Assembly (NCBI GenBank): GCA_010093605.1
Contig: MU004197.1
Coordinates: forward strand, 124,001-188,000
Source of the DNA: Lophium mytilinum
Lineage: Eukaryota
Direction: 5' to 3'
DNA length: 64,000 bases
Shown: positions 14,501 through 53,217 of the stretch, piece after piece
Numbering within the stretch: the stretch's first letter is position 1
Layout: each line of letters starts with the position of its first letter
Made by a program: the position numbers and the translations under genes
Notes under the pieces: model-generated
What the model was told of the DNA's origin: nothing
Seen by the model: the letters and a program-made list of their open reading frames with translations, nothing else
Database searches by the model: none

Positions 14501-17500
14501 TACGAAGCGAGGAGGATCAAGAACGAACTTGCTCGACGAAGTGGTTGGGGTAAAGTCCAGAGACTGCATGGGTACCGGACGGGTGCTGCTCTGCTCTCCA
14601 GCGATGTGAGGAGGGGTTGACGACGTGGAATCGGTGCCAGGAGTCCCAGATGGAAGCGAGCGATCTGAAGCCTCTGTATTTGAGCTCGGTCCCGTGGTCT
14701 CATTCGAAGTGCCCCATTTTGAGGGCTCTGTAGATCGTGCAGTATTGTCCCCGCCTTTGTCGTTGCCGTGAGAGCTTCCAGACGCCTCAGCACCCCCTTG
14801 ACCACCGTCAGCAGGGTCATCGTCATCCGCATCATCGCCATCTTTCTTATGGATACTTAGATCCTTGTCGTCAGCTAGTTCATTCCGCTTTTTGGCAGCC
14901 TGCTCATCCTTCTTTCGCTCATCAGGATCCCTGAAATCGTCATCGTCGATACCGCTAACAAAATCCTTCTTTTTAAGCGTGAAGAGTGTCCCTTCACAAA
15001 CAGGGAGAGGAATTTCGCTAGCGATAGCAATCCACTTTTCATCGGCCTCAGTAGTAAACACGAACTCAGGCGAGAGCTCTTGAAGGATAGCGAGTGACTG
15101 GCGCATGAAGTTTCCCTCATTACTCCAAAAAAGAGTCACCTTTGGCCCGAGAGCAAGCATAAGCAAGTCCTCAGCACTCGTAGGCTTCGCTAAGTGATAG
15201 CGTGTTCGGAGCAAATCTTCCGTTTGCCTCATATTAATAGCTCTCCGCCTAACCTTTTTAATCTTACGGGGCGGAGTATTGGATCCGGCAGTGGACTGAA
15301 GCTCATTCACGGTGTTCTCGCCTTCGGGTTCCTTGTTGTCATCTTTGTTGGGATTGAGCTGGCGAGCGGTGTCGTTGGACACGGTAGTTTGAAACCCAGA
15401 AGAGTTGGTAGCAGACTCCGAAGATGGTCCAGCCAGACCGGTCGATCTCGAGTGATCAGCGTGCTGAGCCGGTAGAGAAGTATCGACACCTGCACCAGTA
15501 GTAATGGCGCTGGGGGATGTCGCATTTAGAACGTTGTTCGTGTCCTCCTCAGTGGTATTCGTGAGGGTCTCTTGTCCTTTCGATGGTGCGCCCGCTCCAT
15601 CTGAACCGTGCGTCTTGACCTCAACCTGTGTGGAGATCTCATTCTTTGTCGAGACCCCATCTTGTGTCGAGATCTCACCCTGTGTCAGAACCTCACCGCT
15701 TGTCAAGACCTCACTGTGTGTTGAGACCTCACCGTTCAATATAGAGCTAGACGGTGATTTCGCTGGTGACTCTGACGACAACGTATCGGTGGCTAGGCTG
15801 TTCGGGTCATGGCTGATAGTGAGGCTGCTGGGAGGAAGCTCCCCATGTTTATCCTCGCCCTTAACACGTTCCACTATATCGGTGACATTGGTGTTGAGCG
15901 CAGATGCTAGGTTGTTTGCGGAGTTTGGTGAGCCATGGGTGAGAAGAGAGCTCATAACAGAGCTTGGCGAACCTGACTCTTCCGAGTTTCCAGTCTGGCG
16001 CACAGGAGAGCTGGGAGTGTTATCCACGGGATTCTGCGCAACAGCCTGGTTTGATTTAATGGCTATCGCACTACCTTTTCCGGGATTGCTTGGATCGTCA
16101 TCGCCATCTGAGTCGTCCTCTTGACCATCACTTTGATCCTCGGAGTCTTTCTTCCTTTCATCCTGGTCTGCACCTGCACCATGGCGGTTGGGAGAGTCAT
16201 CACCCTGACCTGCACCTGCACCATGGCCCTCGTCCTCGGGGGTACCATCATCATCACCCTGGCCTGCACCTGCGCCTTGGTCGTCGTCCTCAGGAGTGTC
16301 GTCATCCTTATCTTTGCGCGTGTCCGAGTCGGGTTCCTGAGTCTCATTCTTTTCTTCGAACGGGGAATAGACGTTAGTCAGTTGCTTCTTGATGTCTTGC
16401 ACATCTTCGCTCAGCGCGAGAACAAGTCCCTTCTCAGCCTTGGAGTCGACGTCGCCACGCATGATCTGGAGATCGTTGCTGAGCGCCGTGACAGCATCCT
16501 TCCCAGCTTTCGAATAAAGGATTTCGCTCATCCCCTCTACTAAAGTGATAACTTTATCGGTATCGGTCTTTGAAGCGAAGTGGCCATCAAAATTCTTGAC
16601 CTCTTGTTCCAGGATAGTGAAATCTTGCTTTTCAGCCTTGTCGTCGACGGCCTTAGCAAGGGCTTGGCTATCCTCCCGGAGAGTGGTGAGGTCTTGCGCA
16701 TGAGCCTTCTGTGAAACATCCGCAGTGAGAGTCTGAACAGTCTGTTCCAAGGCAGTCAAGCGTTTCTTGATGGCCTTCTTTGCAACATCAGCCTGCAAGG
16801 TCTGAACTGAGTTTTGCAGTCCAGTAACGTCATCAGCATCCGACTTCGTGAGAAGTTGAGCATTCGTATTCTGGACCTCTTGTTGCAGATCCGTGACGTC
16901 CTGCTTTTCAGCTTTCCGGGCAAGTTCCTTTGTGACCTTGCGACGAAGAACACCAACACGCCTAATGCTCTTGTCATCTTGCTCCTTCGTCATCATCCGC
17001 AGTGCTTGCTGGGTGTTCTTTGTCGCTCGGACAGCTTCCCTGCGAGAGCGCCTAGTCTGCTTTTGGTGCAAACGTAAAGCAAACCGTTGTTGACGAAAAG
17101 CATGATTCCGCTTCTCCACGGCGACTTTGGAGTCTTCGAGAAGAGTGATTTTGGCTTCAAGCGCAGCGACTACATTCTTGTCTGCCTTCGTTGCGATAGA
17201 AGCGTGCATCTTAGTGTCTTTGTCCTCGGACTCTTTCATAGACGCAAGTGTGGCTCGCAGCATATCCTGGCAGTCCGGATCGGCGAGGCACTCTTTGAAC
17301 AGGCTCTGACGCTCTGAGGTGGTGATCGAAGATTCGGCGTCGGTATGAATTCCCTTGGATAGTTTTTCATCGACGGACTTTTTGTATGCTTCGAAGTCAT
17401 TGTTCAAAGTAGTCAGGAGTGCAGATAGGCCTTCGACTGCTGTGCGCAATTGAGAGAAGTGCGCATGGTCCGACAGCTTTTCGGTCTCGAGGAACTTTGC

Positions 17501-25079: not shown

Positions 25080-25590
25080 AAGGGGGAGTCGAGTTGCAAG
25101 GAATGTAAGTTAGACTGTCGCTTGGCCAAAAGGCTCCCGAGGAATCAGGGTATCCTCTACAGTCGTACGATTAGGTAGGATTCAAGCTAAGCAGTATGAT
25201 TCGGAGAGCCCAGAATTTTGAGGACCTAAGGCGGAGTCTAGTTCCAAGCAGGTAAAACTCAAGGCAAATAGATTTGAATCCGGTTGCCTAGACTTTTAAT
25301 AACATAATGCCAAGTTGAGTTCCAAGTCGTTTATTCTAGACTGCCTTTTGACTAAACGGCTACCACGTAGTCAGGCCACCCGTGACAGTATTGTGGAGTG
25401 AGCAAAATACAAGCCAAGCAGTGTCGAGTTCGCGTGCCCAGACTTTCGAGAACCCGAGGCGTAATCACTTTTCAAGCAGTGTACATCAGACTACCTCTTA
25501 ACTAGCTGGGTACCAAATAGCCAGGCCACCCTTTACAGTAGTGTCGAGTGAGCAAGACTGGAGCTAAGCAGTGATGAATTCGTATGCCTA
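25080..25590 (-). repeat. Three degenerate copies of the ~163-bp repeat family
   Basis: TAGACTGYC..GGKYAYCC..ACAGT..GAGTGAGCAA cores near 25147, 25372 and 25521. Confidence 0.65.
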
Positions 25591-31522: not shown

Positions 31523-32866
31523 ATGCCACCAAAAAGCATTGGCAAAGCTGATAGTGCTGAAACTGATCTTGAAGTTAACGATGCTTTAGCAATTGGCGTG
31601 ACCTCCATCTCCCTGAAGACTGACCCTGCGTCTGAGGCGAGAGAAGTGCGCCGACGAGCTGCCCAGCTCTTTAGTAGCCGTATTCCTGCAGCTCAGGATG
31701 CTGCGTCCGTCCCCCATCTAAAAGGAACCTCCCCATCTGCACTCCCCGCCTTTGGTACGGCGACCCCAACTCCAGCGCCCCGAGCTCTAGCGTACCCTAA
31801 CCTGGTTCCTACCAAGCTTGACGGCGTTGATCACTTGACTCGCCGCCAGGAACAGCTTGAAGCCATCTATGCCGCGCTGGAGAAGGCTAATATTCGGTTC
31901 AAGAGCAACTCACCTAAGGAATATCTGATCGAGATTGCTCGGGCCAGGGAAGATATCTACACGCAGAAGCGCCCATTCCATGCACCACCAACCGCCTACA
32001 CCGAAGAGAAGTACCTTGATCTCATGGAGTACGAGATCGCAAAGAAGATCCATGGCGCGAACAAGAAGTCCTGGAACAATCTAATTGCGAAGCACTCAAA
32101 GAACCAAAATGCCGTCCCTACCTATGCGCCGCCAACGGCCGCGCAAGTCCCTCTTCCTATGCAGCTCATTCCCAGTGCTGTTCAGAGCAAGATTCCGCTT
32201 TCATTGCGCCAGAAGCATCTTGATGCGCTGTTCGAAGCCTACCAGAATGCTAACAACAAGCATCTTCGCTTTGGCCATCCGATCCTCCTCGAATCAGCAG
32301 ACCTGATCAACCTCTCCCGACAAGCTGAAGCAGCCCGTGCTATAGTTCCTACAGAGACAGACTACAGGATTGGCCTGGAGAACGACGTGAAGACGATCCG
32401 CGACTTCAAGACCCGCGACTGGTGGCGCGCCGTCGCCAAATTCCTCCGCCCGTTCCAAGTTGCCGCCCAAGCCCCCGTCCGGCCAGAGCTCCTCCCACGC
32501 GATGTTAAAGGTATCGATATGAGCACCACCCGCCAGAATCGCCTCAACGCCCTATACAACACCCTTGGTCATGTGAATGAGCGTCATATCCGACAAGGCA
32601 AACGTCTTCTCGGGGATGCAGCAGTCGTCACGATAGCCTCGATCCTAGAAAAACGATCGGTTCGTACACACAGCCGTGTTCGCACAGAGGACGAATACTT
32701 GGAAGAGATGCAGATGGCTATCGAGTCATATTGGCATTCTACTAAGTCTACCTTGTTTTCGCTCATTCGGGAATTTGAACCGACGCGGAAGGAGCTACGG
32801 AAGAGGCAGGACGAGGAGGCCGAGAAGGAGGCCGGGATAGTGTCCGAAGAAACTACGATGAACTAA
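31523..32866 (+). CDS. G6: 447-aa soluble paralogue made mostly of three KIX-like repeats
   Basis: Uninterrupted ORF. Repeats RRQEQLEAIY..N..LIEIARAREDIY, LRQKHLDALF..N..LINLSRQAE and TRQNRLNALY..N..VVTIASILE are collinear with the G5 C-terminus. Confidence 0.85.
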   Translation: MPPKSIGKADSAETDLEVNDALAIGVTSISLKTDPASEAREVRRRAAQLFSSRIPAAQDAASVPHLKGTSPSALPAFGTATPTPAPRALAYPNLVPTKLDGVDHLTRRQEQLEAIYAALEKANIRFKSNSPKEYLIEIARAREDIYTQKRPFHAPPTAYTEEKYLDLMEYEIAKKIHGANKKSWNNLIAKHSKNQNAVPTYAPPTAAQVPLPMQLIPSAVQSKIPLSLRQKHLDALFEAYQNANNKHLRFGHPILLESADLINLSRQAEAARAIVPTETDYRIGLENDVKTIRDFKTRDWWRAVAKFLRPFQVAAQAPVRPELLPRDVKGIDMSTTRQNRLNALYNTLGHVNERHIRQGKRLLGDAAVVTIASILEKRSVRTHSRVRTEDEYLEEMQMAIESYWHSTKSTLFSLIREFEPTRKELRKRQDEEAEKEAGIVSEETTMN

Positions 32867-34380
32867 TAGGGTCGATTCAGCGACGATAGTGACGGGGAGA
32901 ATGGGAGCGGAGTGAGAAGGGGAACGAGGCCTATGATGCGCGGGGAGGAGTGGCAGTTGGCGACGTAAAGTACATGCTACGCTAACTCATGAGGAAAATA
33001 CTGCGCCTTGATTCGAGTAATATGGCGCAATCCTCATCTCTAAGCATTTGTACGGACAGCCTTACAGACGAAAAGGCTGAGTCTACCGCTGCCGCTGCGA
33101 CGGGAAATTCTGCCAGGACTCAAGAGTTGATGTCCTCGTAGCTTGTAGTGTAGACATAGACGATTAGATGAGAAACCACCATAGTAACGAGTGGTTGGAA
33201 CCAAAAATCTGATAATGCATTGAACCCAATGCTACGCCTGTGTTTCTTCAAAGTGACTGTAGCCTTGTCCCTGTATAACTCCTCCTTTTCCTTTCCGACA
33301 TATTGGCGCACAACGTGAATTTCACCTCTTGAGGTAGCCGTTCGGGTGGGGAGGCCTAGTAATGCACAGTCCAAATACAGCTAGACCTAGGGATTCATAT
33401 CCCTACGCAACCAAAGATGAAATATGCATTGTCGAGGTTCAAGTAAGGTTCTCTGCTGTTTCTCCTACCCGTATCCTTCCCGGTGTTTCTATTACTGCTT
33501 CAATAGCTAGATGGAAGTGCTCCGCTAGCATATCCAATCCCTGAAGGTCGCGTCCTTCCGGACGGGGCATGCAACTGGGACGCAAGTCACGGCGTGTGCA
33601 CTTCCTGTATATGCAAAGTGTATTGATTCTACCTAAAACAAAGGAAAGTTCTTCAGCTCATGCAGGACGCTTTTCTTGCCATATGTGATTGCTCTCACAC
33701 ATTTGAAGTGCATCGTAGATGTTATCGTAGCGTTCTCTTACCTGAAGCACTTCTTACAGTCGCATCGACCGGGCAAGACTGCTGTTCAATCGGAGTAACA
33801 TGGGTGATCTCAGCCTCAAGCAGCTAATTCCGCGCCCCACCAAGTAGTCACAGTAATAGAAAGCATAATCATAGATCCTAAAGGTCCAAAGGTCCTATAA
33901 TACAAGCCGCACCAAGACCGCCGTCATACTGTATACAGAAGTCCCAAAGCGCCAAGTCCTTATATCGAACAGCTAACTTGTCTAGCAGCACACGCTAGGG
34001 CCGCACCGCCCTCCTTCTCTGGCCCACTTCATTATAGCTAGACGCGCCTTCCTCCCCCACGATTGGCTGTGAGACTGCTTTTAGAACGTCATGAAAAGTT
34101 AGGTTTTCGAGTTTCCTCGTTTTTGAGGCAGTGTCTCAGCGGTACGCCAGATCATTGACAAGCACTTGCTGTAAGGGGAAATAGGGCGAAGAGAAAAAGG
34201 AACGAGAAGGAAAAGAAACTGCCCAAATACAGTAAATTAATAAAACGTACAGAAATAGAAAGAAACAATCATGTACACCAAACTCACTTCATCAGCCATG
34301 CACGCAGTAAATCATCATGAATAGTTTTTTCGACCTAGCATTGCTACTCCGACTAGATCAGCCCAATACCATCTTCGCGA

Positions 34381-34522
34381 ACCTAGCACGCGACCCCATC
34401 TATCAGGAAAAAGGTCTCCAGCCCCCGCCCAATACCCGTATGATGCATTGTCTCGCGCACAGCTATTAGGCTGGCGCATGACTAGCACCATACATTGAAA
34501 CGAGGGCTGGTGTGTGCTGGCC
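34381..34522 (-). promoter_or_regulatory. Class A structured 3'-UTR RNA element of G7
   Basis: Same fold as 4275-4426 with compensatory changes (GUAUGGUGC/GCAUCAUAC). Loops CUAAUA and CUGAUA. Confidence 0.75.
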
Positions 34523-34659: not shown

Positions 34660-37600
34660 CTACACCCACTTCCTCAGCATCTTCTTCCACTGCTTCTCCG
34701 TCAACTCTTCAATGATTCCCAGTGCTTCGCCGCTGGCATCCGTATACTCAGACTCCCGATCACCTGGCTCCAAATCCGAATCCGAATTCAGGACATCCGT
34801 CACCACCTCCAGCTCGCGTTGAAGCGCGATAGCCTGCAGTATATCTAAGCTAACACCCGTGCCGTGGGTGTTGTTGGCCGAGTTGAGGAAGTCAAGGAGC
34901 TCGTCCAGCGCGTCCACACGGTTTATATGCCAGCCGCCGATCTCGTCGTGGTCTTCTGTCACCACAGGCTTAAACTCATCCGGCTCGGGCTCAGACTCGG
35001 GCTCAGATTCGGGCTCAGCAGCAGGCTCAGGAGCGGGCTCTGGCGCGGCATCAATCTCTCTTCGGCGCTTGGAAGGGTTGTCGTTGTTGTAGTGGTCACG
35101 GTCCCAATCTTCGTTGCTCCCCCCTGCGGCACCCTCGCCAGCGTCTCTGTCTCTTGGAAGAACAAGCTCATCGGGGTCAGTTGTAGTATCGGGGTCAGGA
35201 ACGTAGGCTTGGAAGTTGGCGTCCACATCCGGCGGTGGAAGGGTATGGTTGCCCCAGTTCATGGTCCCCGCAAGGGGCACCTCTTCCCACTCCGTCTCAC
35301 CTGACCTATCGGACCCGTCTTCATCTGGCGTTGCGAGCGCAAGGAGCTCCTCATCGAAGTCGTGGGAAGCAAAAGCTTGTTCATATTCTTCGGGAGCGAG
35401 AGGCTGTTTATCTTCGTACTTATCCTCGTCCGAATCTGAGGTCTGGCAGTCGCCGAAGTCAATCTCATCGTTCTCGTCATACTCGAACTCCGGCGGGCGC
35501 GGCGCGCGATATGCCGTTGGAGAGTTGCTCCGCGACTGACGGGGCGAGAAAGTGGGTTCTGAGCCCGAGTCGGAACTCCTCGGCGATGGGGGTGGTGAGT
35601 AGTCGCCTGCGGAGGCGGTGTCGTTGGCAAGGCCGTTAGACGGGAGGTTGGCGAAGCCGTACCCTGGGTAGCCTCTAGCTGGAAGCGCTGTTGAACTTTC
35701 GCCATTGTTGGTATCACCTAGTTGTCCGTCGTAGTTTGGGCCGCCGTACATAGAGGCCAAAGACCTTGGATGTGTCAGGTTCTGGTCGAAGGTCTGAGGC
35801 TGGGCTCCTAGGGTCGTAAGGGGAGGAGGGGAAAGCGTCATGTCGGTATCCTCTGGAGCTTCTAAAGGCCCCGACTGCCCGGTAGTAGTACCAGGAGGGT
35901 CGTAGACGCCATTCTGAAGATCGGTACTAAAGCCTGGGCTATTCATAGCATCGAGCGCCGCGGTGAAGCTCATGTCGATATCAAACTGGGGTGCGAACGT
36001 TGTAGTCATATCCAGTTCAGCGTCGTTGACAGCCCCATCCGCAGCCTCATCCCTCATAGTGGTGTCAACTTCGCCTTCGCCGGGAGTCTGTCCAGTCGGG
36101 GTGACACCTTGCATGCCTTCCCCAAAGGTATAGCTTGTCGAACTGCTACCTGTAGGGGGACCCTGAGCCTCCTCCGCAGATGTTGAAGGACCGCTATTTG
36201 ATAGAGTCACGGGAGTGCTCGTGGGACGACATGTAGTCTGAGTGGTTGACAATTGTCCCTGATTACGAGCTCGTCTGAGAGGGGCAATCTTTCTACGAGG
36301 AGCTGTCTCTATGACAGGAACAGTCTCTTTAGGTCCGTCCTCATCGCGTTTGTCTCCGTCGTTAGAGTCCGACAACCTATCATCTTGACCCCTAGATTCA
36401 TCGTCTTGACCAGTCGCGGACGTGGGAAAAGTTGTGTTACTCTCTCTGGCAGAAGTCATCCGAGGCCCTCCGTTCTGGCCTACCACGAAGTCTTTAGTGG
36501 CCCGCTGGCCTCCGTTAGCGGTTGTGGTGGTGTCAGTGTGAGGAGCAGCGGCTGCGGAGGGAGACACGGAAAGGGTAGGAGGAGCCATTGATACTGGCAC
36601 ATTTGCTCCTGTTCTGGAAATCGCGTCGACCATATCGTTAGGCTGAACACTGGAAGCTGGTGTATGAACGGGGCGAGAAGCCGCCGATGATGTAGAACTT
36701 CCGGATATTGGAGCTTTAGTCCTCTTAACTCCTCGGGCTCGAGCAATCTTGCGTCCCTTCAGCTCCTCGGAAGTTGCCTTGAGACTCTCATATGTTGCTG
36801 TATCATCCTCATCAGGATCAAGTTTATTCACGTTTCTTTGATCAAGACGGGTACCACCTCGCTTCGTAGCGCCGCTGCTTTGCTGGCTCATCATGCCAGA
36901 AAGATCAACAGGACCGGCATTGGAAGGAGTCGGACGTGCCTGGGCCAAGGCGGGAGCCTCAGTAGTTATGGTTGGAGGGGAGGCGCTTGTGCTCGTTGGG
37001 GTGGCATTAGAGACATGAACAACTTCATCTCCTTCAACCTTCTTTGCAGTTGTCGGAGTTTGTGAGACTTGTGACGATGACGCTGCCACAGCTTGAGACG
37101 ACGATGGCTCAGCATTTAGTTCCGTGCTAGTTTCGGTCGCTATTGGTGGATAGATGAATTTGAACAGCGTCGGAGCCCCCTCTGGCTTAGCTGTAGTCTC
37201 TGCCGCGGCTTCTGGCTTCTTCACCAACCCGGAGATATCGAACGTAGCCAGGTTGAGAGGCGGCGCAGATTGCGTGGTGGCGCGAACGCGCGGAGTAGCC
37301 GTTGTCTCGGAAGCGAGAGGAGCTGCGGTCGAGAAGAGCTTCACGGGAGCTGTCGTGGCGGGTAGTCCGGGACGGGTTGCCTGAGGCGTAACCGTAATCC
37401 GCGATGTAGTTGTAGATGCCGCTGATGTTGACTTGGCCGGTTCATCAGTGACAGTCGGTGTAGTTGGAGCTAGGACCTCAACATTGTTGGCAGTCGAGTT
37501 TGTAGGACCGTCCCGCAGTACGGTCACTACAGAGGAAGTAGACGTCGCTCGAGAGCGGGTATTGGGGCCCGTCTCAACGGCGTTAGAAGCGGCTGTAGAA

Positions 37601-40600
37601 GTCAACGGCCCAGCTGCATCATCTTCCGCAGTCGTGAGAATAGCTGGGGTCGGTCTTGCAACACCAGCTCCAGGTTGACTAATGAACCTAGACAGATCGA
37701 TATGACCTCTGTCGTCGTTGGAAGTAGTGACAGACACGGATTGTAGTCGAGACAACACCGAATCAACAGTCTCATCAGATTCCGAACTAACGACCCCCGC
37801 GCCGCCTTGACCAGCCTCATCTTCGTCGTCGTCCTCGCTGTCTGATTCTGACTCGTCTTCCTCACGACTGGATTCTCGCCATTGATTGTCGCCAGAAGTC
37901 GATCTAGGCGGCTTGAAGTCTTGATTTGCGGCGGTCCCGTTGTCAGTTTGAGGGCGATCATGACCTGCTGAGGTCCTACTGTCAGCGTTATCGTCTGACG
38001 CCTGTTGATCATCGTCAACAGCGGTATCAGATGCGCGATCTTGAACAGTGTCTTGGGTGGCAGAATCTGGTCTATTCGGCGAAGATCCTGGAAGCGCAGA
38101 GGTATCCAGCGTCGCTCCTGTAGCATGAGGCGGAGAACCAGATGAGATAGGTGTGACTGTCTCCAAAGGCACTACCACAGTTTCAGAAGCGATACATTCC
38201 TCACGCTTATTAGCACGAGCGTTTTCCTCCATAGCTTGATGCACCTCCTCGCACTCATAGCAGACCGGCTGGCCGTCGAAAATCTTGGTGGATTGCGTAG
38301 CCTTAAACCTCCCGCCATGAAGGAAACAGGTGACTACCCGACCGTTTAGCCATGAGGATGAGGGACTCCCAGTTTTAGTGAGGGTATATATGGTTGGACG
38401 GTATACTGGTGGAGATGGAGGTGGAGGTGGAGGGGGTGTGCGAGGACGAGGACCCTCCTGCTCAAGGACCAGTTCCTCGGACGCCCTGCCCTTCCCCTTC
38501 CCCTTGTATCTTGGCCTAGAGTCATAATCTGGTTCATCTGTAACCCCTTCCGAACTATCTTTCTCATTGTCCTGAGTGTCCCGGGACTCAGAAGGAGCGT
38601 AGTTTGCAGCATCTGCTTCAGCTGCAAATGTATCAGTTTGAACAGTTTGATCTTGTGCATATGAGGTATTCTGGTCTTGATCAGGGAGATTATCAGGACT
38701 AGAGGGAGGCGCGCATTCCTTATCCTGAGGTGGAAGCTTGTATGAACCAGGAGGTGGCGTACAATCCCGATCCATCTTTGGCGGAGTCGATGTGGAGGGG
38801 GGCAAAACTGAACTAGGCGATGAAGAAGAAGTAGTAGGAGTAGTCGGCACCGCTTGGGCAACGTTGAACCTAGCCAACGCTTGAGCGATCTGTTTTTTGA
38901 TATCTTTTTCCATAGCTTCTTGCAAAGCCGCAAAGCGCTCTTCAATTTCCCGGTCTTTCTGAGCCTGTTCGGTCCTAAGTCTTGCCAGTTCTTCAGCATG
39001 GTCTTTTACTTGCTGGTCACGGTCCGCCTCGAGCGCAGCGACTATTTTCGTCAACGCCATGATCCGACGTGCTTGGGCCTTTATATTGCCATCTAAGCCA
39101 AGGGCAGTCGACAGTGATGAAGCTCGATCTTGTGCAGCTTGCTTCTTGTGCGCTTCGTAGTTTTCCTCGAGGAGACTGAGGGACTTATCGAGGGAGTCGA
39201 CCTCGGTTTTGCTAGCCCTCTTGTTGAGTGCGACCTGCACTCTGTCGCGCAGCTTGTTCAGTTGTGCTTTCCAATCGTCCACACTTGCTGACGATACATC
39301 CCGTGATGTCGAAGGCCCAGCTTCGGCGGATTGATGACTAGTCTTCCGCATCGTCTCGAACTCTTGCTGTAGTGTGGCTATCGCGGCTTCCAGATCGTGA
39401 AGTTTCCGGGAGTACTCTTCTGGTGAGGCGGAGCGGGAGTGAACCTTCAAGAAGCGCGCTTTCGATCGATCTGACACACTGACTGATCTCCGGCCTCCGA
39501 ACGTAGTGCGCGCGAATCTGTTCTGTCGCGTTGTTTCTTCATCCAGGCCAGCCGTGTCGAAGTCGTGCTGTGTCGCACGTCTCGCGGGACGCTGCGCAAC
39601 AAAGCTGTCAATGAGGTCCCAGAGACGCTCTTGGTATTGCTGACTGTCGAGCAACATGGCAAGAAGCGCGAAAATAATCCTCAATGGGTCAGGCGTTGGC
39701 TTGGTGGGGCGCCAAAGGACGACTGCGTTATGAATGGAGGGGGTGGCCACGGGTGTATGCGCTGGGGGAGCAGGCGAGCCAGGAGGGCCTGGTGGACCTG
39801 GAGGACCTCGCGGGCCGGGGGGTCCTTGTGGGCCAGGAGGTGACGGTGGCGCTGGAGGTGGAGGAGGTAGCCCAGGTGGCCCTGGTGGGCTAGGTGGAGG
39901 AGGTGGAGGAGGCGGAGGAGGCGGAGGAGGCGGATGACCACCATTGTTGTTGTTTGGAGGGGGTGCTAGGGCATTCGGTGGAAGAGCTTGCCTACGGCGC
40001 ACGAGTAACCAGCGGATGAGATTGCGACAGAATTTCAAGATCAAGTATAAGCCATAGAAGGCCAAGGACCAGACAACCACGCTGAACAGTAGTTGTAGTG
40101 GTGTGAGGTTGTATTCCACATCTGGCATGAAGCGGCGAGCGGTATAGCGAGGTTTCGTCGCATTGATGCGTAAGGTGGCTAGAAGGAGTCGTATTAGCAG
40201 GAGAATACCTTGAACAAGTTATAGAACTTACGGATATCGAAGAACTTTGAATTTTCGAAACCGCCAACCAAATGTTCACCAGTGGAGACAGGGACGTCTT
40301 CAAACTCGAAGGGATTGGCTTCCACTGTCGCTGTCTCTATGATCTTCGTGGTGACGCTTGTCAAGGGAGGAGGAGTTGCAGTTGAGATGAAGGCTCGCTT
40401 TGTCGTGATCGGGAACGCCCTAACGCATGTCGTGTCGCCCTTTGAGCAGGGAAGATTGACCGTAGGTTTATATTTGCGGGTCTCCCAAGGACGGCCGGTG
40501 TTGATCCAGAGACGCAGAGCCTTCTCTACAGTCATGTATACATATACCGTTGCTCTGACCTCCTTGTCCCAAATGATGTACATGGCGCGATCAAACGCCA

Positions 40601-41379: not shown

Positions 41380-41960
41380 GCCAGCGCACTGTAAATTAGA
41401 GTACTATTTACTTGACTAAAAGTATGTTACTTGGGGTCCCCTGGACAGTGGTATGATGAGAGCAGAAGTGAAGTTAAAGCAATGGCATACCGGACCGTCT
41501 GAGCTTTTGACCTAGTACTGAGTGCTATGGGACATGTGTGGGCATTCCGCGCATACGCTTGGGGTATCTTGATAGGCTTTCGAAACTCTGAGTATGACAG
41601 CGATGCATCGTGAACATGGCTGCCGTTTGACTAACCAAAGACTTGCCGCTTGGGGTACTCCTTACATTGGCGTTAAGTGATCAATATTAATTTTAAAGTA
41701 GTGGAACATCAGTCTTCCTAATACTTCAACCTATTACCAGAGTATCTCTTGATATATTAAATCCCTTATACTGTATATATAAAATAGAGTAAAGTATTTC
41801 TAGACACCCCACGCATCTACTGGGGGTATCCCGATAGAGTTCTTGATCTCTATAAACGATGCATAGCTTGATGTACTGGATTTCTAGCTGCCATTTGACT
41901 AACTATAGACACGCTTACCGGGGTCCTCCTTACAGCGGCGCAACACGAGCACATAGTAGA
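41380..41960 (-). repeat. Degenerate copies of the ~163-bp repeat family
   Basis: GGGGTMCYCCT..ACAKTGG-type cores near 41433, 41652 and 41920. Further single copies near 10745, 33745, 47509 and 57755. Confidence 0.6.
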
Positions 41961-42507: not shown

Positions 42508-45500
42508 TTACTCGCAGTTCTTAATGGTGTTTGCCCACTCTGTTTCATTGCCCGTCTCGATCCCAGTCACTTCCAGTTTCAATTGCCACTCATACGACTC
42601 TAGAGGAGTCGTGTTCCCCGTGGACGCCTCGTCGAGTGCTTCAATGGCCACGTCCTCCTCCCGAACCATAGCGAGCATCTGGAGCGCCCGCATGGTCTTG
42701 CGCGTGCGGTACCTCTTGTTCGTCTCCAGCAACACCTTCAAGATCTTCTTTAGACCATCGACGCGCAGTTGTTTATGGTTGCCGTAGAACTCGTCGGCGG
42801 AGCGGGGCACAAAGGGAACCTGTGGGCGGTCGTCGCGCTTGCGGAGCTTCGGGGCTCGTGTGGGACGTGTTGCTAACTGCTCTTGCGTCGCGGGGGTGGG
42901 GGTATTGTCCATAGAAGCAGACTGGCCAGGTGCTGGAATAGCTGAGGAAGAATCACCGACTGGAGACGATGTGATTTTTGGCACCGGTAGAATTGGTGTT
43001 AATGGCTCATATGTGCCCAACGAAGAGTCGGGGTCGAAGTGAGGAAGCGTATCCCACATATCGCTCTCTGGCACAGTCGTCGCATTGGATGCCGGATATG
43101 TAAGCTGAGGCGCTGCACTAGAGTCAGATGGCCAGGTGAAAGTGGACGAGAACGGTGTTGGATCCGCGCTGCCAGACCAGGAGCCTCCTCCATCAATTGG
43201 CGGTGGTGGCGCATAGAGGTCCCAGTTGTTGTCGCTAGGATTCACTGGATCGAACCCGGTTGGCTTGGAAGATTGATCAAGGGGCGTGTTCGGCACTGAC
43301 GCGTGGGAGTCAAAGTCGTTGGAACTGCCGGAACGATGGCTCTTATCAACCGCACCGTTGCCAAACGGGGACATGTAAGCAGACCAAACGCTTCTTGGAT
43401 TCGCGTTGCCCAACGCGGAACTTCCTCCTGCAAAGAGGCTCCGCTCCCACTCGTCGTCGTCGGGATCCACGGGATCGAACCCGGTTGGCTCGGAAGGTTG
43501 ATCAATGGGCGTGTTCGGCACTGACGCGTGGGAGTCAAAGTCGTTGGAACTGCCGGAAGAATTGCTCGTAGCAGGGGATCTGTTCATGTAGGGGCTGTTT
43601 TGCACCTCCTCTGCCGATAGAGGTTGCATAAGGCGCGCATCTAGCGCTGGTGGATCTGGCGCTGGCGGCCCTGACGCTGGCGGATGTGGCGCTGCTGGAC
43701 CTGACAACCCTTCCAATGGATTGGCGAAGGGTTTCTCCACATCAACCATTTCGTCAGTGTCATCGTGGCTATTCGATGGTTCACTCATCCGAGGCTCTTG
43801 ACGCCATGGTTCCTGACGCCATGGTTGTGGTCCCAAAACCGGTGCCGAACCCACCTGACCGGGAGGTTGGGTATAGCCATTGTCTGGCGCCTGCGTGTGG
43901 ATAATATCTTCATGGAGATTGACGAAGGGCACGCTCACGTCAACCATCTCATCGTACAGCTCGAATGCTAGTGCCTGTTCTTCTCGATGGACGAGGACGC
44001 GGAGACGAGAGGTCCATGCCGAGCGGATATCTTGACCGTTGACATATAGAAACAAGATGTTGGCGTTAAACTCCTTACTCTTTCGGACCCTGAAGCCATA
44101 AAGATCTGGGCCTAGCACCCTCAGAGGCCTCTTCCGATCGCGACCCCGTTGGAGCCAATGTAGGGTACCAGAAGTAGTAGAAGGATCAACTAGTTCTCCT
44201 GCTCCGGGTATGAAAGTTGGCACAGATGCGAAGATGGGCGTGGGTGCGCTGAAGATTGGACCGATCGGCTGAAGCTGCTGACGACCTGCTGGGTTTACTG
44301 GGGCTTCCTCGGGGACCGCAGAACGCTTTTCAGCGGGGAATGAAATGGTGAACAGATTCCAGCCTGGAGGACGATTCTGCTCGAGAGAGGTTGATTTCGC
44401 AGGGTCAGGGACGAGGCTCGGCAAAGAAGGCTCTAGATCACACGACACATGCTCGGTCTTTGGAGACGGCGTAGCACCGTGAGAGGGACTGTGAGGGGCC
44501 TCCGGCGCATCATCTGGTGGGTCTTGACCATCCACCAGATTCAGCTCGTCTGGAATAGACGTGGTACCCGTAGAATCAATGTTGGTCGGAGGGGGCGACA
44601 GAGGAGCCACAGGAGTGGAAAACGTCTGGGTTGGAAGCACGACATCTGAAGCTACTTCCGATACATGTGATTCGACACCCTGATTCTCGGCCTGAAGCTC
44701 ATGCTCTTGCTTAGCATGATAGTGGTCCGGGACCTCTCCGCTGGAAGTATCAGGACGGAAAGCTGCAGCGATTTGTGATGCGATTTCGGACTCCGGCGCG
44801 CTGTCATCGTCGCTATAAGGTGTGGACGCGCTATCTTCCTGCTGGACGGTCTGATCCTGCTCCTCGGCGTCGCTAGTTTGCTGAGCTTCGTCATGCGCTG
44901 AGGAGGATGTCTGGTCGTCACGGTTGGGCGGCAAAGCTGTACCAAGCTCTGTCTGATTCTCAGGCTCACGGCGGTCTTGTTCGCCGCTTGCTTCGATAAC
45001 GACGTCACCCTGCTGGAGAGTTTGATCCTGCTCGTCTTCCTCGCTATCATGCTGGATCTGTGCACCGTCCGAGGGCGTTTGGGCTTGGTGATCGAGCGCC
45101 AAGGCCGTGTCAAGATCCGTCCGATTCTCAGGCTCACCACTGTTCTGTTCCCTGCTTGCTGCGATATCGACGCGGATTGTAAACTGGGTAACGCTTTCAC
45201 TTGGACATTTTACCACAGCCTGCCAAGCTTTGCGCCTATCCTCCTCCGTCCAACGCGAGCTCAAATCGGAGATAGGCCCATCGTCTTGTTCATCTTCCGA
45301 CGAAGGCTCCCATCTCGGTAAGTTTGATGGAGCTTTGGCCTTCAGGAGACCCGACTTGGGCGGACCTTCCATTCTCGGAACGTACATGCTTACAGATGCA
45401 CGCTCTTCATCGGAGAAGCGCGGTAAAGGTCCGGGAGAACTTGGACGGCGGATCAAGGTCCTTGGTACCTTGACTACTTTGCCGTGATCCATTTGAGGGA

Positions 45501-46863
45501 AGGAAGCATGATAGTCATACCACTTTTTATACGCCTTGAAGGATGGGGTTTGAAATACTGAGTCCGAAGTGATACGGGTGACAATGCCGTCGAATTTGTG
45601 CGTCTCGTTCCAGCATACATCGCTTGCTCCACCATCTTCTTCCTTTGCTTGCTTGTCGTCAGTGAGGTTTCGAACCTCATCTTGCGTGGCTCGACGCAAT
45701 GCGGACTTGTCGAAACTCAGGACTTCAAGCGCATGTATCATACGTGAACGCCAAGCGGATTCGTCGGCATCGAGATTCTGAAGATAGTGCTGTGTGCCTG
45801 GTCGCGATATCGGGGGATCTGGTATGGGAAGAGACACAGCAACCGGAGGGAGATAGACACCCGTGGGGAGATGGAGAGTAGAGCTACTGGCATAGGGAAC
45901 AGGAACCACCTGGCCACCAATTGACGTGAAAGCAAAGAGAGGGCCAGAAACCGGAGGGAGTTTCAAGCCGGTGAGCGCTGGAACTATAGTCTGAACAGGC
46001 AGCGTGTCGATCATGGGTCGGCGGAGATGGCGCAGCAAGGGCGCGATCCGGTTGTTCCAGAGAGCGCAGAGACGGCGCAGCGAGGATGCTATGATGGACT
46101 TGTACATCGCGCCGAGACGGCGCATCAAGGGCGCGATGATGTTCCTGTATAGCGCGCGGAGACCGTAGAGTACACCGAGGAGAAGGGGGATGTTGAAAAC
46201 ATATGGCGCCCACCGGTGGAATGCAATATTGTCTAGAACATTTCCAGGACCGGAATCATCGTCTCCATCGGTTGGGCCAGATGGATCATCGTCTTCCTCG
46301 GTTGGGCCAAGTGGGTCATCGGAGGTCAGAAACGTGACTAGTGGACTTGGTATTAGCAGCGATACACCACGGGAAGAGTAGCATGCATTCTTACAGTTGC
46401 TGAAAGTGGAACCATCCGCAATACCAGATTCATTTTTTGTCTCGGGCTTCGTGTAGTGAATATAGACCACTCGTTTGGGGACGTAATCAGAAAGCGCGCT
46501 GCTGCCAGACCAGTAATCTGCGCTAGAATCTCTGGAGTCGAAGTCTGGAAGGGTCAGGCGGAAGTCTGTGAGAGTGAGGCGGAAGTCTGTGTGGGTGAGG
46601 CGGAAGTCTGTGAGGGTCAGGCGGGTCGGGGCCGGATTGTAGTGCCAGACTGCCTTTCCGGTATTAACAGCTATCTGGAGGCCTGTGTCGAATGTACTGC
46701 GAACCACCTGCGAGAGCAGGAGGATGAACATATCGAACATTCCGACACCAGTAGTGAAATGCCTATAGTTTGATTAGCTTGTCTTTCCAGGTATTCAGTT
46801 GTGAGGAAGGGGGATATAGGGCGCTGAAACAATTCAATGACAGTGACGGGTTTCAACTTACAT
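42508..46863 (-). CDS. G8: array-family protein, ~1400-1418 aa (TM, RATQ motif, disordered region, one KIX-like repeat)
   Basis: 1410-aa ORF. Upstream intron 46861-46763 appears to split the start codon (AT|G). Possible stop-free 57-nt intron at 46394-46338. N-terminus NTGKAVWHYNPAP resembles G2 HAGKATIWYNPRP. Confidence 0.8.
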
Positions 46864-48058
46864 TGTGAGCGGATGTGTTCGAGCAGATTGCTGGCAAGCA
46901 GCGAAAGCAGTGTGCCTGGACCAGAGGCAGCGCGCGAAGTCCAACGACAGTGAAGGAGCCGCAAAAGTGAGGTTGTGGAACACCAAGGCAGGGCGTGGTG
47001 TGGGGTATGAGGTGGTGTGTGGAGTGTCGATGGGAGGTGGTGAGGAGGAAGGTCCGTCAAGAGCGAGGGCAACGGATTGAAATCAGCAGCGTAGGCGCTA
47101 GGCGGCGCTAAGAGCTAGAGGGCACTTTCACTAGTGAAGTGAAATGACGTAATTGTGCGAATTTGATGCGACGGGGTTTGTGTGTCAACATCGGGTATTC
47201 ACTAGTTGTGGGCCTCGCTTTGTACCGGGTCCGGGCAAATTGGTGTTGCAGAGGGAGATTTGGCGAAGAAGGGAGAAGATGCTCAAGGTCTAGCTATATA
47301 TGCATGTAGTGTCGCAGGGGTTGAAAATTAGCTATATTCATAGACTTAGAAGTCATTCAGTCCTCTTTCTACAGTACTGAGTTATATGGTTGGACAGTCC
47401 TTGCAAGTCCTAGGGTGCTCCAAAAAGCATGGAAACTTCGAAATGCCATGTGACGGCCATCCTAGTGGGAATTAGACCACCTTTTGACCAACGGAGGAAT
47501 TGCTCCTTGGGGCACACCTTACAGTAGTGTCGGGAGAGCAAGGGTGAAGCCAAAACCATGGCATATCCATGTTGCCCACATCCAAAGCTCAGTACTGTAT
47601 GCTTATCCAATGCCTTGTTTATAGATCTGGTTTAGCGCGTGTCGCTGTTGACATCTCAATACTCAGACCAAAATATATTCAGGGGGACTAGCAGGTGCTG
47701 TCGCGGCTCTCAAAAGGACTGTTTGATCAGTACGATCTATGCTTGGTTGAAATTAGTACCCATATATCACAATTCTATTCCACGTATCCAATATAGCGCA
47801 GGTAGAATGTAGCATCGCAGCCTTCAAAACACCATGGACGTAGGAGTCTTTCAAACACATATCACCAGTGTCAAATCGAAGAGTCAAAGTTTGTAAATAT
47901 GCTTCATCGGATTCCAAACAGCTATTAAACCATTCAACTGTGATTACCAACAAAAGCTCCCTACTCGCAATACACTCGCACCGTTGACTACAATAGAACA
48001 CACAAAGAAATGAAAAAGATCTAGCATTTACTCCCAACTAGACCGACCTATCTGAGCA

Positions 48059-48212
48059 GGTCTAGCACGCGACCCCGTCTATCAGGACAGAAGTCTCCCA
48101 GCCTCCGCCCCCGCCCCAAATACCTGTATAGTTCCTTTGTCGAGCACGCAGCTATTAGGCTAACGTGTGACTAGCACCATACAGGGTTGAGACGAGGGCT
48201 TGTGTGAACTGA
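48059..48212 (-). promoter_or_regulatory. Class A structured 3'-UTR RNA element of G9
   Basis: Stems GCCCUCGUCUC/GGGGCGGGGGC, CUGUAUGGU/ACUAUACAG, CACG/CGUG, AGC-CUAAUA-GCU and GUC-CUGAUA-GAC. Confidence 0.75.
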
Positions 48213-48325: not shown

Positions 48326-51300
48326 TCAACAGAACTCCTCAGCATCCCCGTACTTATCCGCGAAGTAGTCCTCTGGGTCCTCGTCGTCAGCCGTCGCTTG
48401 CTGAGCAGGCTGGGGCGCCGGAGCAATCGCAGGGGGTGCCGGTGGCTGCGCAGAACCTGTGGAGCTCTGCCCCTTCAGAGGTCGCACGCGGCGCTTCGCA
48501 AGCTGCTCGGTAGAGGCGCGCTTGGGCGTGTCTGTGTCGGCGGAGGCCTGGCCGTCGGAAGATTTGTGTTTGAGCTCGTGATCGTCGTCCTCGTCGTGTG
48601 TAGAGCTTTGATCTTCGCTTGGAGGGCTCTGGTCAGGGCGCGCCTTTGCTTCGGTGCTCTCTTTCTGCGCCTTGCGGTCCTTCAACATCTGCGCCTGAGC
48701 CCCAGAGTCCTCTTCCATGGTCGCCTTCGAGTCCTCATGCAAGGCTTTGTCCAGGGCCTCGGCCTCTTCTCGCTGCTCAAGGATCATTTTGACGTCGAAG
48801 TGGCTGGCTAGATATGCTTGGAACTCCGAGTAAATGGTGAGATAGTAGTTTCGGGAGCCTATCTCGATGCCGCCGTACTCCTGAAGCATCGCCTTTTTGT
48901 ACTCATCTTTTCGATCGGACTCAGGAGATTTGAGCGTTTGCCGAGCGAGGGGTTCTTCTCGAGACCGCGCCCACTCAATGAGTCTGGATTTGCTGAAATT
49001 TGTAGTATACGTCTCGTTTCCCTTCTTTAAGGCGCAGAAGAGTGCGGTAAGGCGGCGTATTCGCTCTTCTCCAAATTTGATGCCCTCGATGTGGTTAGGG
49101 GGTACCTGTAAATTGACTATAGGATCTGCGGGAGGAGGAGCGAGGGCTGTGGATGACGGCGCTGCTATGTTCCGGTTGTTGGGATCAGCGGCTTCTTTGA
49201 GTGCATCTTGATCTTCGACGGTGATAGCCTTGTTTCTCAGAAACTCGAGAAGAACGTCGCTGTCCATGGAAGGCGTATTTTGGAAAAGGTGGGAGATCTG
49301 TTCCTGGATCTTACCGTTGTACCTAGATCTTGAGATCGGCATAGGTACAGAGCTATCGTTCAGCCATCGCGCAGAGAATTCCCGCTCCATTGTTCGCGCA
49401 ATGATTGACAGAAAGTTTTGCGAGTAGCCGGTATGAAGCCGGTCGTTAGCCTCGTCGAGGATCTCGAATATGTCCTCCAGCCGGGATTGGCGCACAGGCA
49501 AGTATTCTGCCACTACGCCAGGGATGTGGAAAGGTTCCAGTTGAGGAATCGTGTCTTCGGAATCTGCATCGACGGCCTCTGCTTCCTCGAGTTCTTCCTC
49601 TTCGAGAATTGGAGCTAGTCCAAATGCATTTGGACGTGTTGGGGACACCGCCCTAGCTTTACCCTTATCTACCCTGCGTTCCATACGTGCCCGATCTGTG
49701 ACACCAGCTGACATCGAAGGCCGTTGGGTTGATTTTTCCTGCAGAGGCTCAGATGACGCACTGGAGGCATAAGAGCTAGCGGCCTGGAATGCGGGCAGGA
49801 TCGTGTCGGATGATGCTGAAGGCACAACCACGTTCGGAAAGGCTGGCTGAGTTTCCATGCCGGCCGGAATTTCAGAAGTAGGTTGAGTCTGATTTTGTGG
49901 TTGACTAGACATGGGTGCATCCTCTTCTTGCGTGGAGGCATCGTCCATGTTCGCAGCTTCCATGCCGGCTGGCATTCCAGACGTCGGCGGAGGAGGATGC
50001 TCATATTGACTAGACCTGGGGGAATCCTCATCTTTCGCGGAGGCATCGGCCATGTTCACAGCTTCCATGCTGGCCGGGGTTTCGGGAATAGATTGAGGCT
50101 GAACTGGAGGTTGACCAAACACGGGCGCATCCTCATCTTTCGTGAGAGCATCCGTCATATCCTGATTCTCCTGCGTCCTGTCCCCGCGGGGTAGCTCCTG
50201 AGCAACTGAAGGCCCAGCACGGTGAGCGTCAGCCTCGTTCTGCTGAGCTGGAAGACCTAGTTTTCCGAAAGGCCACTGATAGTTGGATAGGGCTGGTGCC
50301 TCAGCTCGCGTAGGGGATGAATCGAATATTGCATTCGCTCCCGGAGTCTGTAGCGGTGGAAGTGCTGGTCCTTGCGGACCTGCTGGTGAGGGCTCAGCCA
50401 CACCATCCGACTCTGCCATTTGCAGATCCTCGTTGGGGGGTTGAACCGCGTCCATTTCGGTATCTCCCTCAAATTGAAACCCATCCATATAATTGTCACT
50501 ATGTTTGGGTGGATTCGATGGCTCCTGCATGCCACTAATTTGTTCACCCGCTGGACGCGATTCAGAGCTCAGCAACGACGTGGTCGCGCCGTCAGCCTGA
50601 GTATTGGTATCTGCGTTCGCAGCATTTCCCTCGAGCCCAAACATCGAAGAGCTGTCGCCTTCATCTTGATCGGGCTGAGAGTTTGACAGAGCTGCCCCGG
50701 CATCGTCGTCCGCATATACCATCCTCGCGTTGTCCATATCTTCGGCAGGAGTCTTCAGATCTGGAGCTTGGGTATATGTGTTTTGCGGAGTGCCAAAAGC
50801 AGTAGGGGCACCACCGACACCCGCAGCGGAAGCGACATTCGAAGGCAAAGGGATACCGATATAGGGTGCAGGGATAGAAGCTTGCGCTAGCCCTAAACTC
50901 GGAAGTGCCGGGGGTGCCGTAGAGCTGTTTAGATGTTGGGCAATGTGCTTAGACATATCCGGGGTTTGAATAGGGGAGATGGTTGGAATTGATGGGACTG
51001 AACTTGGTGCATAGGTTTGCACGATTTGATCGGTAGTAGCACTGGCTGGGGGACTCTCTGGAGCTTTAGGTGGAGCCATAACGGTCGGAGCAGCTTCCTC
51101 GATTTTGGGCTGTGGGTCCTCAGCCTCGTCTGACGGCACATATTCCCGCTCAAATATTCTGTGTACTGCCGGGTATTGAAAGTCGTCGCTAACTCCAATG
51201 CTCATCGTAGAGAAGTCAATGATTGGGCCGATGCTCTGAGAGCTCTGCTCAGCGTCTAAAGCAGCTGTACTCTCATCAGACTCCTCGACACCGGTCACAT

Positions 51301-53217
51301 GTGACGAAGAGGTGGGGACTGCATTCGAGACCGGCGAAAGCGACGCAGTGGAAGTTGGCACGTTCGGCACATCGGCCAAGGCATGCGTATCAACTGCTGG
51401 GGGAGCTGCACTAACAGGCGGAGGATTTGATGGAGGCAGTCCCATGCACTTCAATAGAGCAGCAAGCCGAGTCTCGATCTCCCAACCGATGTCGGTGCTG
51501 ACGATCTCCGCAACGCCGTCATCGTCTTCAGTCTCAGTGTCGGAATGCTCCGATTCGGTGTCCTCGTCCAACGACACAGGCTCGCGCCATTGAATCAGGT
51601 CGGATGTTGATCTAGCGGAGTTGACATTGTCGATCTGGCTCTCCGAGGCGTGCTTTTGTATAACTTGGCATGGCTCTGCTAGAGTAAACCCGACAGCGGC
51701 ATCTTGTTGGAAAAGTGCATCCTGTTTCGTGGTGAAGTTGACGTCTGGGGGTTTGATGTTCGAATGGTAGCTAGATTCCGAGACGACAACAGAAGCATCC
51801 TGAATCACGGCGTTTGCGACTGGCTTTTGGGCGGTTGGTTGTGTTTTTGGGGTTCTCTTCTGTGTACGGCGAAGACGACGAAATTTCGATCGCCCAGGCG
51901 TTTCGATATCAGCCTGAATAACCTTTTCGGGTATGGAATGGGCCTTAGTGGGCTCTGCGGCAGGAGTCTGAGCCTGGGGACTTTTAATTTTGGAGTTCTG
52001 ATCCAAAACTGAAGCTCCTTCGACATGACGACGCTCAAGGGAAATCTTCTTGCTCTTGATCGCGTCCTTGGCATCGGAGCTTTCTTTGCCGGAACCGTGA
52101 TGTTGCGCTGGCAATTCTTCCCGCTTCGTGAATTCCTGGGGTTTACGTCGCGAAATTCGCATGTTGCGTCCTCGTGACAGCGCGCCCTCTGGAGGATTTT
52201 CTTCGGGGGCGGGAGGGACCTTTGGCTTAGGCGCGTAGTATTGGAACCAAAACGCGTCAGATTCCGCAACCTCATCCGCCTTCCTTTGGGCCCATTCGGC
52301 CTGGAAACGCGCCTTACGCTCCGCGCGTCTGAGGCTCTGCTTCTTCAAGTGGACCAACATTGCGTCTAGATCGTTTATTAGGCGGAGCCGACGGACTTCT
52401 TTTACGGCGGGGAAGAGAACAAAAATGTAGTGGTCTCTGAACTCTCGCCACACCGTAGTCGGGTCGCGAAACATTCCGAAGGCTTTCTTTGCGTGGGTCA
52501 GTAAATCTAACGCGTCTTGATCGAGCCCAAGGTTGAGGATGTCGTCTTGGGTTGCCCGTCCAGATCTGGGCACCCATATAGAGACTTCGGGCGAGGAATC
52601 TTGGTGCGCGGCGTGAACTAGACGCGAGCAGGTCGGAAGGCTGTGGTGTGATTTAGGTTTCATCTTGCGAGAGAGCTTTGCTTTGAAGCAGCGAAGCGCA
52701 TCAACCGTGCGACGAGAAACCTTTCCGGGCCACTGGTAAAGAAATCGGAACCGCTGAGAGGCGACCGGGACGAATCCAAAGAATGCAGTTGTTGTGCAGC
52801 GGAGTATCGCGTCGCAGTAGCGAAACGTATCCGCTATAGCGTGAGCCACCGCCCCCAGCCATCGAAGAAGTTGTCGGCAGAGTTGGAAGGCGCAAGCAAG
52901 AAGTCCAAGGATCGCAAGAGTCGTGGCGGAAAGGCGTGCTTTGCTCGCGAAAAGGGCATCGGACATGCGGCGGGACATCGCACTGCGCCAGCGAGCAAGG
53001 ACATGGGCATGGGCATATGTTGCGGTGACGAGGATGATGATAGCGAGAATGGCAAAGGGGTATCCGAAGCCTGGGATGAAGCCGCTGAATGAGGCAGGGC
53101 TGGGTGGAGAGGCGTCTAGAGATCACATTAGTAGAGCGCAAGAGGTGAGGGGACAGGCTAATAAGACGCGGGATAGAGCTTACCATTCCGTAAGGGCTCG
53201 AAGTCATCTCCGAGCAT
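48326..53217 (-). CDS. G9: array-family protein, ~1607 aa (TM helices, RATQ motif, disordered region, two KIX-like repeats, basic C-terminal motif)
   Basis: 1550-aa ORF extended upstream through YPFAILAIIILVTATYA and intron 53183-53116 (GTAAGC..CTAAT..TAG) to an ATG at 53217. Start position is uncertain. Confidence 0.75.

Follow-up and report, generated by a model that had tools for sequence, protein, structure and literature searches.

A predicted Nup50/Nup2-like importin-alpha-binding stretch inside a giant orphan open reading frame of Lophium mytilinum

Introduction

Does the importin-alpha-binding signal with which the nucleoporins Nup50 and Nup2 begin also occur in the interior of a protein that is not a nucleoporin? 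This question is raised by a 64-kb stretch of the genome of the Dothideomycete ascomycete Lophium mytilinum (contig MU004197.1, positions 124,001 to 188,000; hereafter the window, to which all coordinates refer). The window contains 11 large open reading frames (ORFs) of 418 to 2351 amino acids (aa), 14086 residues in total; 9 of the 11 are located on the minus strand and two run off the window ends. One of them, G7 (34660..40128, minus), is intact, starts with ATG and codes for 1822 aa, of which aa 1089-1136 (36721..36864, minus) form a 48-aa stretch, KRGGTRLDQRNVNKLDPDEDDTATYESLKATSEELKGRKIARARGVKR, that resembles the N-terminus of Nup50 and Nup2. These two nucleoporins employ their motif to release cargo from importin-alpha, as described in PMC7891619 and PMC6340215. 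From the sequence comparisons reported here, we propose that the G7 stretch may be a Nup50/Nup2-type long bipartite importin-alpha-binding signal in a lineage-specific, N-terminally anchored, giant disordered protein, a reading to which we assign a probability of roughly 40%.

Results

The stretch in G7 has a characteristic order of elements: a KR pair is followed by L..RN and an acidic run, and then by ATSEELKGRKIARARGVKR. Its second half (A1118-R1136; 36721..36777, minus) combines an A[ST]xExLxxR core with the basic residues R1126, K1127, R1130, R1132, K1135 and R1136, which are located at offsets 37 to 47 from K1089, beyond a spacer of about 35 residues. With lysine or arginine at 13 of 48 positions (protein mean 9.1%), no other 48-aa segment of G7 is as rich in these residues, and basic clusters are otherwise rare in the proteins of the window.

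In a comparison with known families, 136 tiles of 150 aa spanning all 11 large ORFs were scanned against Pfam, with E-values corrected for 24736 models. The tile of G7 that contains the stretch matched NUP50 (PF08911; 71 profile positions, curated gathering cut-off 22.5 bits) with 26.2 bits (E 1.2e-5), and this was the only match of any family above its curated cut-off among all tiles. Excised pieces of 130 aa (26.3 bits, E 1.1e-5) and 67 aa (24.4 bits) gave similar scores. In the alignment, G7 aa 1095-1148 (36685..36846, minus) correspond to profile positions 9-59. Only one further tile, from the C-terminus of the neighboring ORF G9, matched NUP50 at all, whereas the other 134 tiles of the same composition did not. 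The profile is not promiscuous, since in control six-frame searches it exceeded the cut-off in none of 14 prokaryote genomes. As far as profile comparisons can tell, the resemblance of the G7 stretch to NUP50 is real and specific.

A second line of evidence comes from the core of the motif. The pattern A[ST].E.L..R occurs three times among the residues of the 11 ORFs, once each in G7, G8 and G9; in shuffled sequences the mean was 0.071, and none of 2000 shuffles reached three. A stricter form, in which the core is followed by basic residues, yields exactly three matches across all six frames of the window. In G9 (48326..52978, minus; 1550 aa), the half-motif KRASTEQLAKRRVRPLKG (48470-48523, minus) is part of a C-terminal stretch (48431..48580, minus) that aligns with NUP50 positions 7-59, scoring 24.3 bits (E 4.7e-5) as a 68-aa piece and 18.8 bits (E 0.0025) as the last tile of 108 aa. 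In G8 (42508..46740, minus; 1410 aa), the half-motif ATQEQLATRPTRAPKLRKR (42835..42891, minus) falls into the best local alignment between G8 and G9 (G8 aa 1272-1295 with G9 aa 1476-1499; 46% identity over 24 aa, E 0.22).

The peptides quoted for G7, G9 and G8 in the original prediction are exact translations of the minus strand at these positions, and the cluster RKIKKVRRR that it had assigned to a gene named G3 is located in ORF C (ORF C, 11588-18643; cluster, 15242..15268, minus), where it represents a basic patch only. Of the half-motifs proposed there, the one in G9 is supported by the NUP50 profile, whereas neither the G8 piece nor the tiles of ORF C gave a match. ORFs B, D, E, F and I do not contain any copy, and the motif is not a family-wide trait; in the window, only G7 (in full), G9 (in part) and G8 (its core) have it. 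G7, G8 and G9 are distant collinear paralogs that can be aligned only in a few short collinear islands, namely a juxtamembrane CRxLxRWL, an RATQ(D/H)D patch, an acidic W patch and a C-terminal helical module. Because these genes are paralogs, the presence of the core in all three reflects retention and not independent origin.

Several findings weigh against the assignment of a Nup50/Nup2-type signal. Scored as a whole protein, G7 reaches only 19.6 bits (E 0.0014), below the cut-off of 22.5; whole G9 does not match NUP50 at E<=1. The Pfam alignment of G7 begins at profile position 9 and thus leaves the KR pair outside the scored match. Searches of PDB sequences with 90-aa and 48-aa pieces and with a 3-sequence profile retrieved no Nup50/Nup2 chain at E<=10. 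The membrane anchor of G7, detailed below, was assigned by hydropathy only, and classical bipartite nuclear localization signals (NLSs) of the form KRx10-12K(K/R)x(K/R) or K(K/R)(K/R) are missing from all 11 ORFs. The exact G7 ORF is absent from the public protein collection, and an exhaustive phmmer search of 1.84 billion representatives with G7 aa 877-1243 returned no self-match. Finally, no ortholog with which conservation of the motif could be tested was found in the databases searched.

One could therefore ask if the resemblance is a chance or neutral one, in which a basic-acidic-basic patch of a fast-evolving, possibly untranscribed disordered ORF happens to meet a short, low-information profile. 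The sub-threshold score of whole G7, the match of G9 in excised pieces only, the lack of a Nup50/Nup2 chain among the PDB matches, the lack of orthologs and the absence of G7 from the protein collection all fit this explanation, and among the alternatives it survives best. Yet we regard it as unlikely, because the E-values include the correction for the number of models, because two independent tiles pointed to one and the same family against 134 tiles without a match, because the core is kept in three paralogs, and because no other stretch of G7 is as rich in K/R.

With regard to annotation, the sole match in the search with G7 aa 877-1243 was a junk repeat protein (P0002). From this result and the absence of the exact sequence, G7 seems to be unannotated. 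In this respect it apparently differs from its neighbors: G8 is identical to the annotated protein P0004, and G9 is 100% identical to an annotated 1607-aa hypothetical protein of L. mytilinum (P0003) that carries a 57-aa N-terminal extension. The guanine-cytosine content at the three codon positions (GC1/2/3) follows a pattern in G7 that resembles that of the annotated paralogs. A search for homologs of whole G7 yielded none among 8000 scored candidates, a list that low-complexity words may have crowded, and the 67-aa motif piece compared with longer proteins gave none among 26 candidates at E<=10. Likewise, G9 aa 1100-1550 retrieved only its own record, P0003, the ESM Atlas gave no usable match for the G7 motif and ORF F, and a phage collection gave no match. 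In the databases queried, no relatives were found for any family member searched. Two sequencing runs, one of which we guess to be RNA, provided no cover on G7, which is too weak as evidence either way; the run guessed to be RNA gave two small 100%-identical contigs on G9 only (48349-48568, covering the G9 motif, and 52338-52591), which at a depth of about 3 are equally too weak to serve as evidence.

To see how far the likeness to known importin-alpha ligands goes, we compared the G7 stretch with the descriptions given in the cited reports. K3 and R4 of Nup50 fill positions P1'/P2' in the minor NLS pocket of importin-alpha, while the remainder of the segment lies along Armadillo (Arm) repeats 9-10 (PMC3946659); the role of K3/R4 in Nup50 and Nup2 is also described in PMC8634129. 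For Nup2p, KRVAD (2C1T) and MRRKI (1UN0) are both placed in the minor pocket (PMC3946659). Residues 20-48 of Nup50 contact Arm 10, and deletion of residues 24-51 abolishes binding (PMC13648615). The exchanges K3E, R4D, R38A and R45D in Nup50 abolish importin-alpha binding, and the authors refer to the motif as a bipartite NLS (PMC8634129). The Nup2 residues targeted by mutation are K3, R4, R38, R39, R46 and R47 (PMC7891619), a report within which the assignment of the two sites is inconsistent. When compared by eye and from residue numbers only, the KR pair and the basic residues of G7 match these mutation sites, of which those downstream of the pair are found at about +35 to +44. K1089-R1090 (36859..36864, minus) may thus be the counterpart of K3-R4; because the pair is located outside the aligned part of the Pfam profile, we can only infer this correspondence.

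G7 shares with Nup50 and Nup2 the profile match over positions 9-59, the KR pair, the acidic spacer and the basic cluster at offsets of about 37 to 47. On the other hand, their motif is located at the extreme N-terminus, whereas that of G7 starts inside the protein, at aa 1089 of 1822. Nup50-type binding does not require a free N-terminus, since in the structure 3TJ3 four vector residues upstream of Nup50 are tolerated and lie along importin-alpha (PMC3946659). G7 also differs in that it has neither phenylalanine-glycine (FG) repeats nor a Ran-binding domain but a hydrophobic membrane anchor, in its sub-cut-off whole-protein score, and in the lack of single-sequence similarity to solved chains.

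Could the stretch simply be an ordinary NLS or a basic patch that binds chromatin or DNA? In that case KRTK (aa 1135-1138) would bind the major site, either by itself or together with the distant KR, and the likeness to NUP50 would be a by-product. A monopartite word K[KR]x[KR] is indeed present at aa 1135, and bipartite NLSs with linkers of more than 20 residues are known, for instance in XRCC1 (PMC4548243). Like this long-linker NLS, G7 has two basic elements more than 20 residues apart; unlike it, the G7 spacer contains conserved non-basic positions that match NUP50. A chromatin patch would be in keeping with the report that mutations of the basic motif of Nup50 also abolish chromatin/DNA binding (PMC8634129). 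However, both variants leave unexplained the non-basic matches that carry the score (L..RN, the acidic run and A[ST]xExLxxR), as well as the retention of the non-basic core in G8 and G9. We therefore consider such an ordinary signal rather improbable.

The best matches of the motif queries among PDB sequences were EF-hand loops of lanmodulin. A lanmodulin-type EF-hand was considered for the acidic center NKLDPDEDDTATYESLK (G7 aa ~1097-1113; 36790-36840, minus), but with E 0.17 the match was not significant, and the assignment was rejected because loop position 12 is a serine, only a single loop is present and there is no Pfam EF-hand match.

If G7 carries the signal of a nucleoporin, is it a nucleoporin itself? 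The original prediction had likened a membrane span combined with an NLS and scattered FxF words to POM121, had proposed targeting to the inner nuclear membrane or the pore and had suggested that the family may mimic nucleoporins. FxF words, however, are at chance level (1 observed and 0.8 expected from shuffled sequences in G7, 1 and 1.3 in G8, 4 and 1.3 in G9). FG dipeptides are not enriched in G7 (3, with 2.2 expected), number 8 in G9 (2.0 expected) and are near expectation in the other ORFs. None of the 11 ORFs contains FxFG or GLFG. Whole-protein and tile Pfam scans revealed no Ran-binding domain, no HeH/LEM domain, no MSC domain and no other nucleoporin domain. Sequence searches identified no POM121 homolog, and FG repeats are absent, though an anchor and one NLS-like stretch are present. 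As there is no excess of FG or FxF in G7, no FxFG or GLFG, and no Ran-binding, HeH/LEM or MSC domain, G7 is neither a member of the Nup50/Nup2 or POM121 type nor a mimic of FG nucleoporins, and the proposed mimicry is not supported. Judged by its domains and repeats, G7 is not a nucleoporin.

It is also conceivable that G7 is a membrane-tethered importin-alpha sink or cargo-release factor at the endoplasmic reticulum (ER) or nuclear envelope, where it would mimic nucleoporins in function by holding or stripping importin-alpha, and that the stretch is not an import signal of G7 itself. The cargo-release function of the motif in Nup50 and Nup2 would be a precedent, the evidence from the NUP50 profile applies equally, and when Nup50 is forced into the cytoplasm, it competes for importin-alpha and thereby blocks import (PMC13648615). 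Nevertheless, neither FG repeats nor a Ran-binding domain nor a pore-targeting region was found, and nothing distinguishes such a sink from a plain import signal; we deem this scenario improbable.

The proposed anchor of G7 is a hydrophobic, membrane-span-like segment at aa 11-34 (40027..40098, minus), with a Kyte-Doolittle 19-residue mean of up to 2.2. Because acidic residues precede it and lysine and arginine residues follow, the bulk of G7 should face the cytosol, and we predict this topology for the protein. The anchor is directly followed by a poly-proline/GPPGP collagen-like tract (aa 47-125; 39754..39990, minus), and a linker of about 1055 aa, rich in S, T, P, A, D and E and mostly disordered but with coiled-coil-like stretches, separates anchor and motif. 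A single strongly hydrophobic segment close to the N-terminus is present in each of ORFs B, C, D, G7, G9 and I, while the corresponding segment of G8 stays below the threshold; for G8 as well as ORFs C, D and I, its position is 70-300 residues inside the ORF. The juxtamembrane CRxLxRWL is common to G7 and G9 (E 0.005). In overall composition (P 11%, S+T 20%, D+E 15%) G7 is mostly disordered, and it is a giant, probably membrane-anchored orphan protein. The S/T/P/A-rich composition and the N-terminal hydrophobic segment could also suggest a secretion signal or a lumenal orientation, as in a mucin-like wall protein whose motif never meets importin, but this is highly improbable given that the segment spans about 24 residues without a basic n-region and with K/R after it, that its counterparts are internal in G8 and ORFs C, D and I and lie behind the 57-aa extension in G9, and that G7 has a high share of acidic residues and coiled-coil-like stretches.

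A comparison with proteins that are sorted to the inner nuclear membrane is instructive in this context. Reporters of yeast Heh1 and Heh2 and of mammalian Pom121 reach this membrane by means of a signal composed of a membrane span, a disordered linker and a strong NLS on the extralumenal side; the signal is active on both sides of the span, provided that the linker has more than 53 residues (PMC4569319). G7 would have the same order of elements, a putative span, a long disordered linker and a predicted strong importin-alpha signal, and this anchor-first order has been shown to work. In contrast, the NLSs of Heh1, Heh2 and Pom121 resemble importin-beta-binding (IBB) domains and use both the major and minor pockets, whereas the G7 stretch resembles ligands of the minor pocket and Arm 9-10. 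Moreover, the G7 linker is about five times longer and contains coiled-coil-like stretches, and HeH/LEM and MSC domains as well as FG repeats are missing.

Beyond the motif, the window is characterized by a recurrent helical module of about 45-60 aa with the consensus R.Q..L..I[FY]..L...N ... L..[IL]A...E. ORFs B, C, E, F and G9 together contain 12 clear copies, nine of them on the minus strand (5137-5322, 5473-5658, 12335-12520, 13040-13225, 26641-26826, 27070-27255, 27640-27825, 48893-49078 and 49322-49507) and three on the plus strand (31829-32014, 32192-32377 and 32516-32701). G8 and G7 have weak copies; the divergent one of G7 (aa 1737-1784; 34777..34920, minus) matches a G9 module in blastp with E 0.006 and the module profile with an independent E-value of only 2.4. 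Structure prediction from the 12 copies gave a helical hairpin with a predicted local distance difference test (pLDDT) score of 78.5, for which no Pfam match, no PDB profile match and no Foldseek match in the PDB at E<=0.001 were found. A single-sequence AlphaFold2 model of ORF F (pLDDT 42) was unusable. This module is the defining feature of an orphan paralog family, which takes up most of the 64-kb window. The only sign of a conventional domain that the window offers is a RhoGEF match in ORF H (54941-56821, minus), which at 25.2 bits is below the cut-off of 27.6.

We also noted several repeats. A ~44-61-nucleotide (nt) element containing GGGTAYYCCTTACAGTGG recurs in intergenic positions, 3' of each of the giant ORFs B, C, E, G7, G8 and G9 on the minus strand (3258-3780, 10744-10787, 25374-25567, 33745-33788, 41434-41696 and 47510-47553) and forms 162-nt tandem units at 3231-3980. 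A conserved element of 40-47 nt containing GTGACTAGCACCATACAGGG follows the stop codons of B, G7 and G9 at a distance of ~85-210 nt (4380-4419, 34448-34494 and 48137-48206) and may be a shared 3' untranslated region or terminator element. The C-terminal part of ORF E (26269-26550, minus) contains a 141-nt tandem duplication with the monopartite-NLS-like TRKRKIG in each copy. The disordered regions of ORFs C, G8, G9 and I contain tandem repeats that keep the reading frame, with unit lengths of 21 to 225 nt (13375-13686, 13969-14448, 43220-43573, 44903-45172, 46540-46644, 49901-50158 and 60484-60906).

Discussion

Among the explanations weighed above, we favor a Nup50/Nup2-type long bipartite signal in G7. 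If this is correct, the KR pair would dock into the minor NLS pocket of importin-alpha, and, after the acidic spacer, the ATSEELKGRKIARARGVKR half would lie at the side formed by Arm repeats 9-10, in the manner of the N-terminus of Nup50 and Nup2. In the context of the N-terminal anchor, the stretch could then act as a membrane-span/linker/NLS sorting signal like those of Heh1, Heh2 and Pom121, by which the extralumenal domain of G7 would be carried through the pore and reach either the inner nuclear membrane or the nucleoplasm. G9 and G8, which keep only the second half with its basic residues, might represent weaker or differently bound versions.

With regard to its origin, one may speculate that a lineage-specific, tandemly expanded family of disordered proteins anchored in the ER or nuclear envelope acquired the Nup2/Nup50 importin-alpha module, either by capture or by convergence. 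By using the minor pocket and Arm 9-10 in place of an IBB-like NLS, this module would serve as a new import signal for the inner nuclear membrane or as an importin-alpha tether. In this extended form we consider the scenario doubtful. We found no report of the Nup50/Nup2 N-terminal motif in a non-nucleoporin in the literature searched.

At present, the finding amounts to a sequence resemblance, with statistical support, in an orphan ORF that is apparently unannotated. If the stretch is functional, such an internal copy of the motif, placed in a giant disordered protein with a membrane anchor, would extend the known range of importin-alpha signals. The short list of proteins that are actively imported to the inner nuclear membrane, Heh1, Heh2 and Pom121, would gain a second kind of signal as well. 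For L. mytilinum, a functional motif would offer the first functional handle on the orphan genes that take up most of the 64-kb window.

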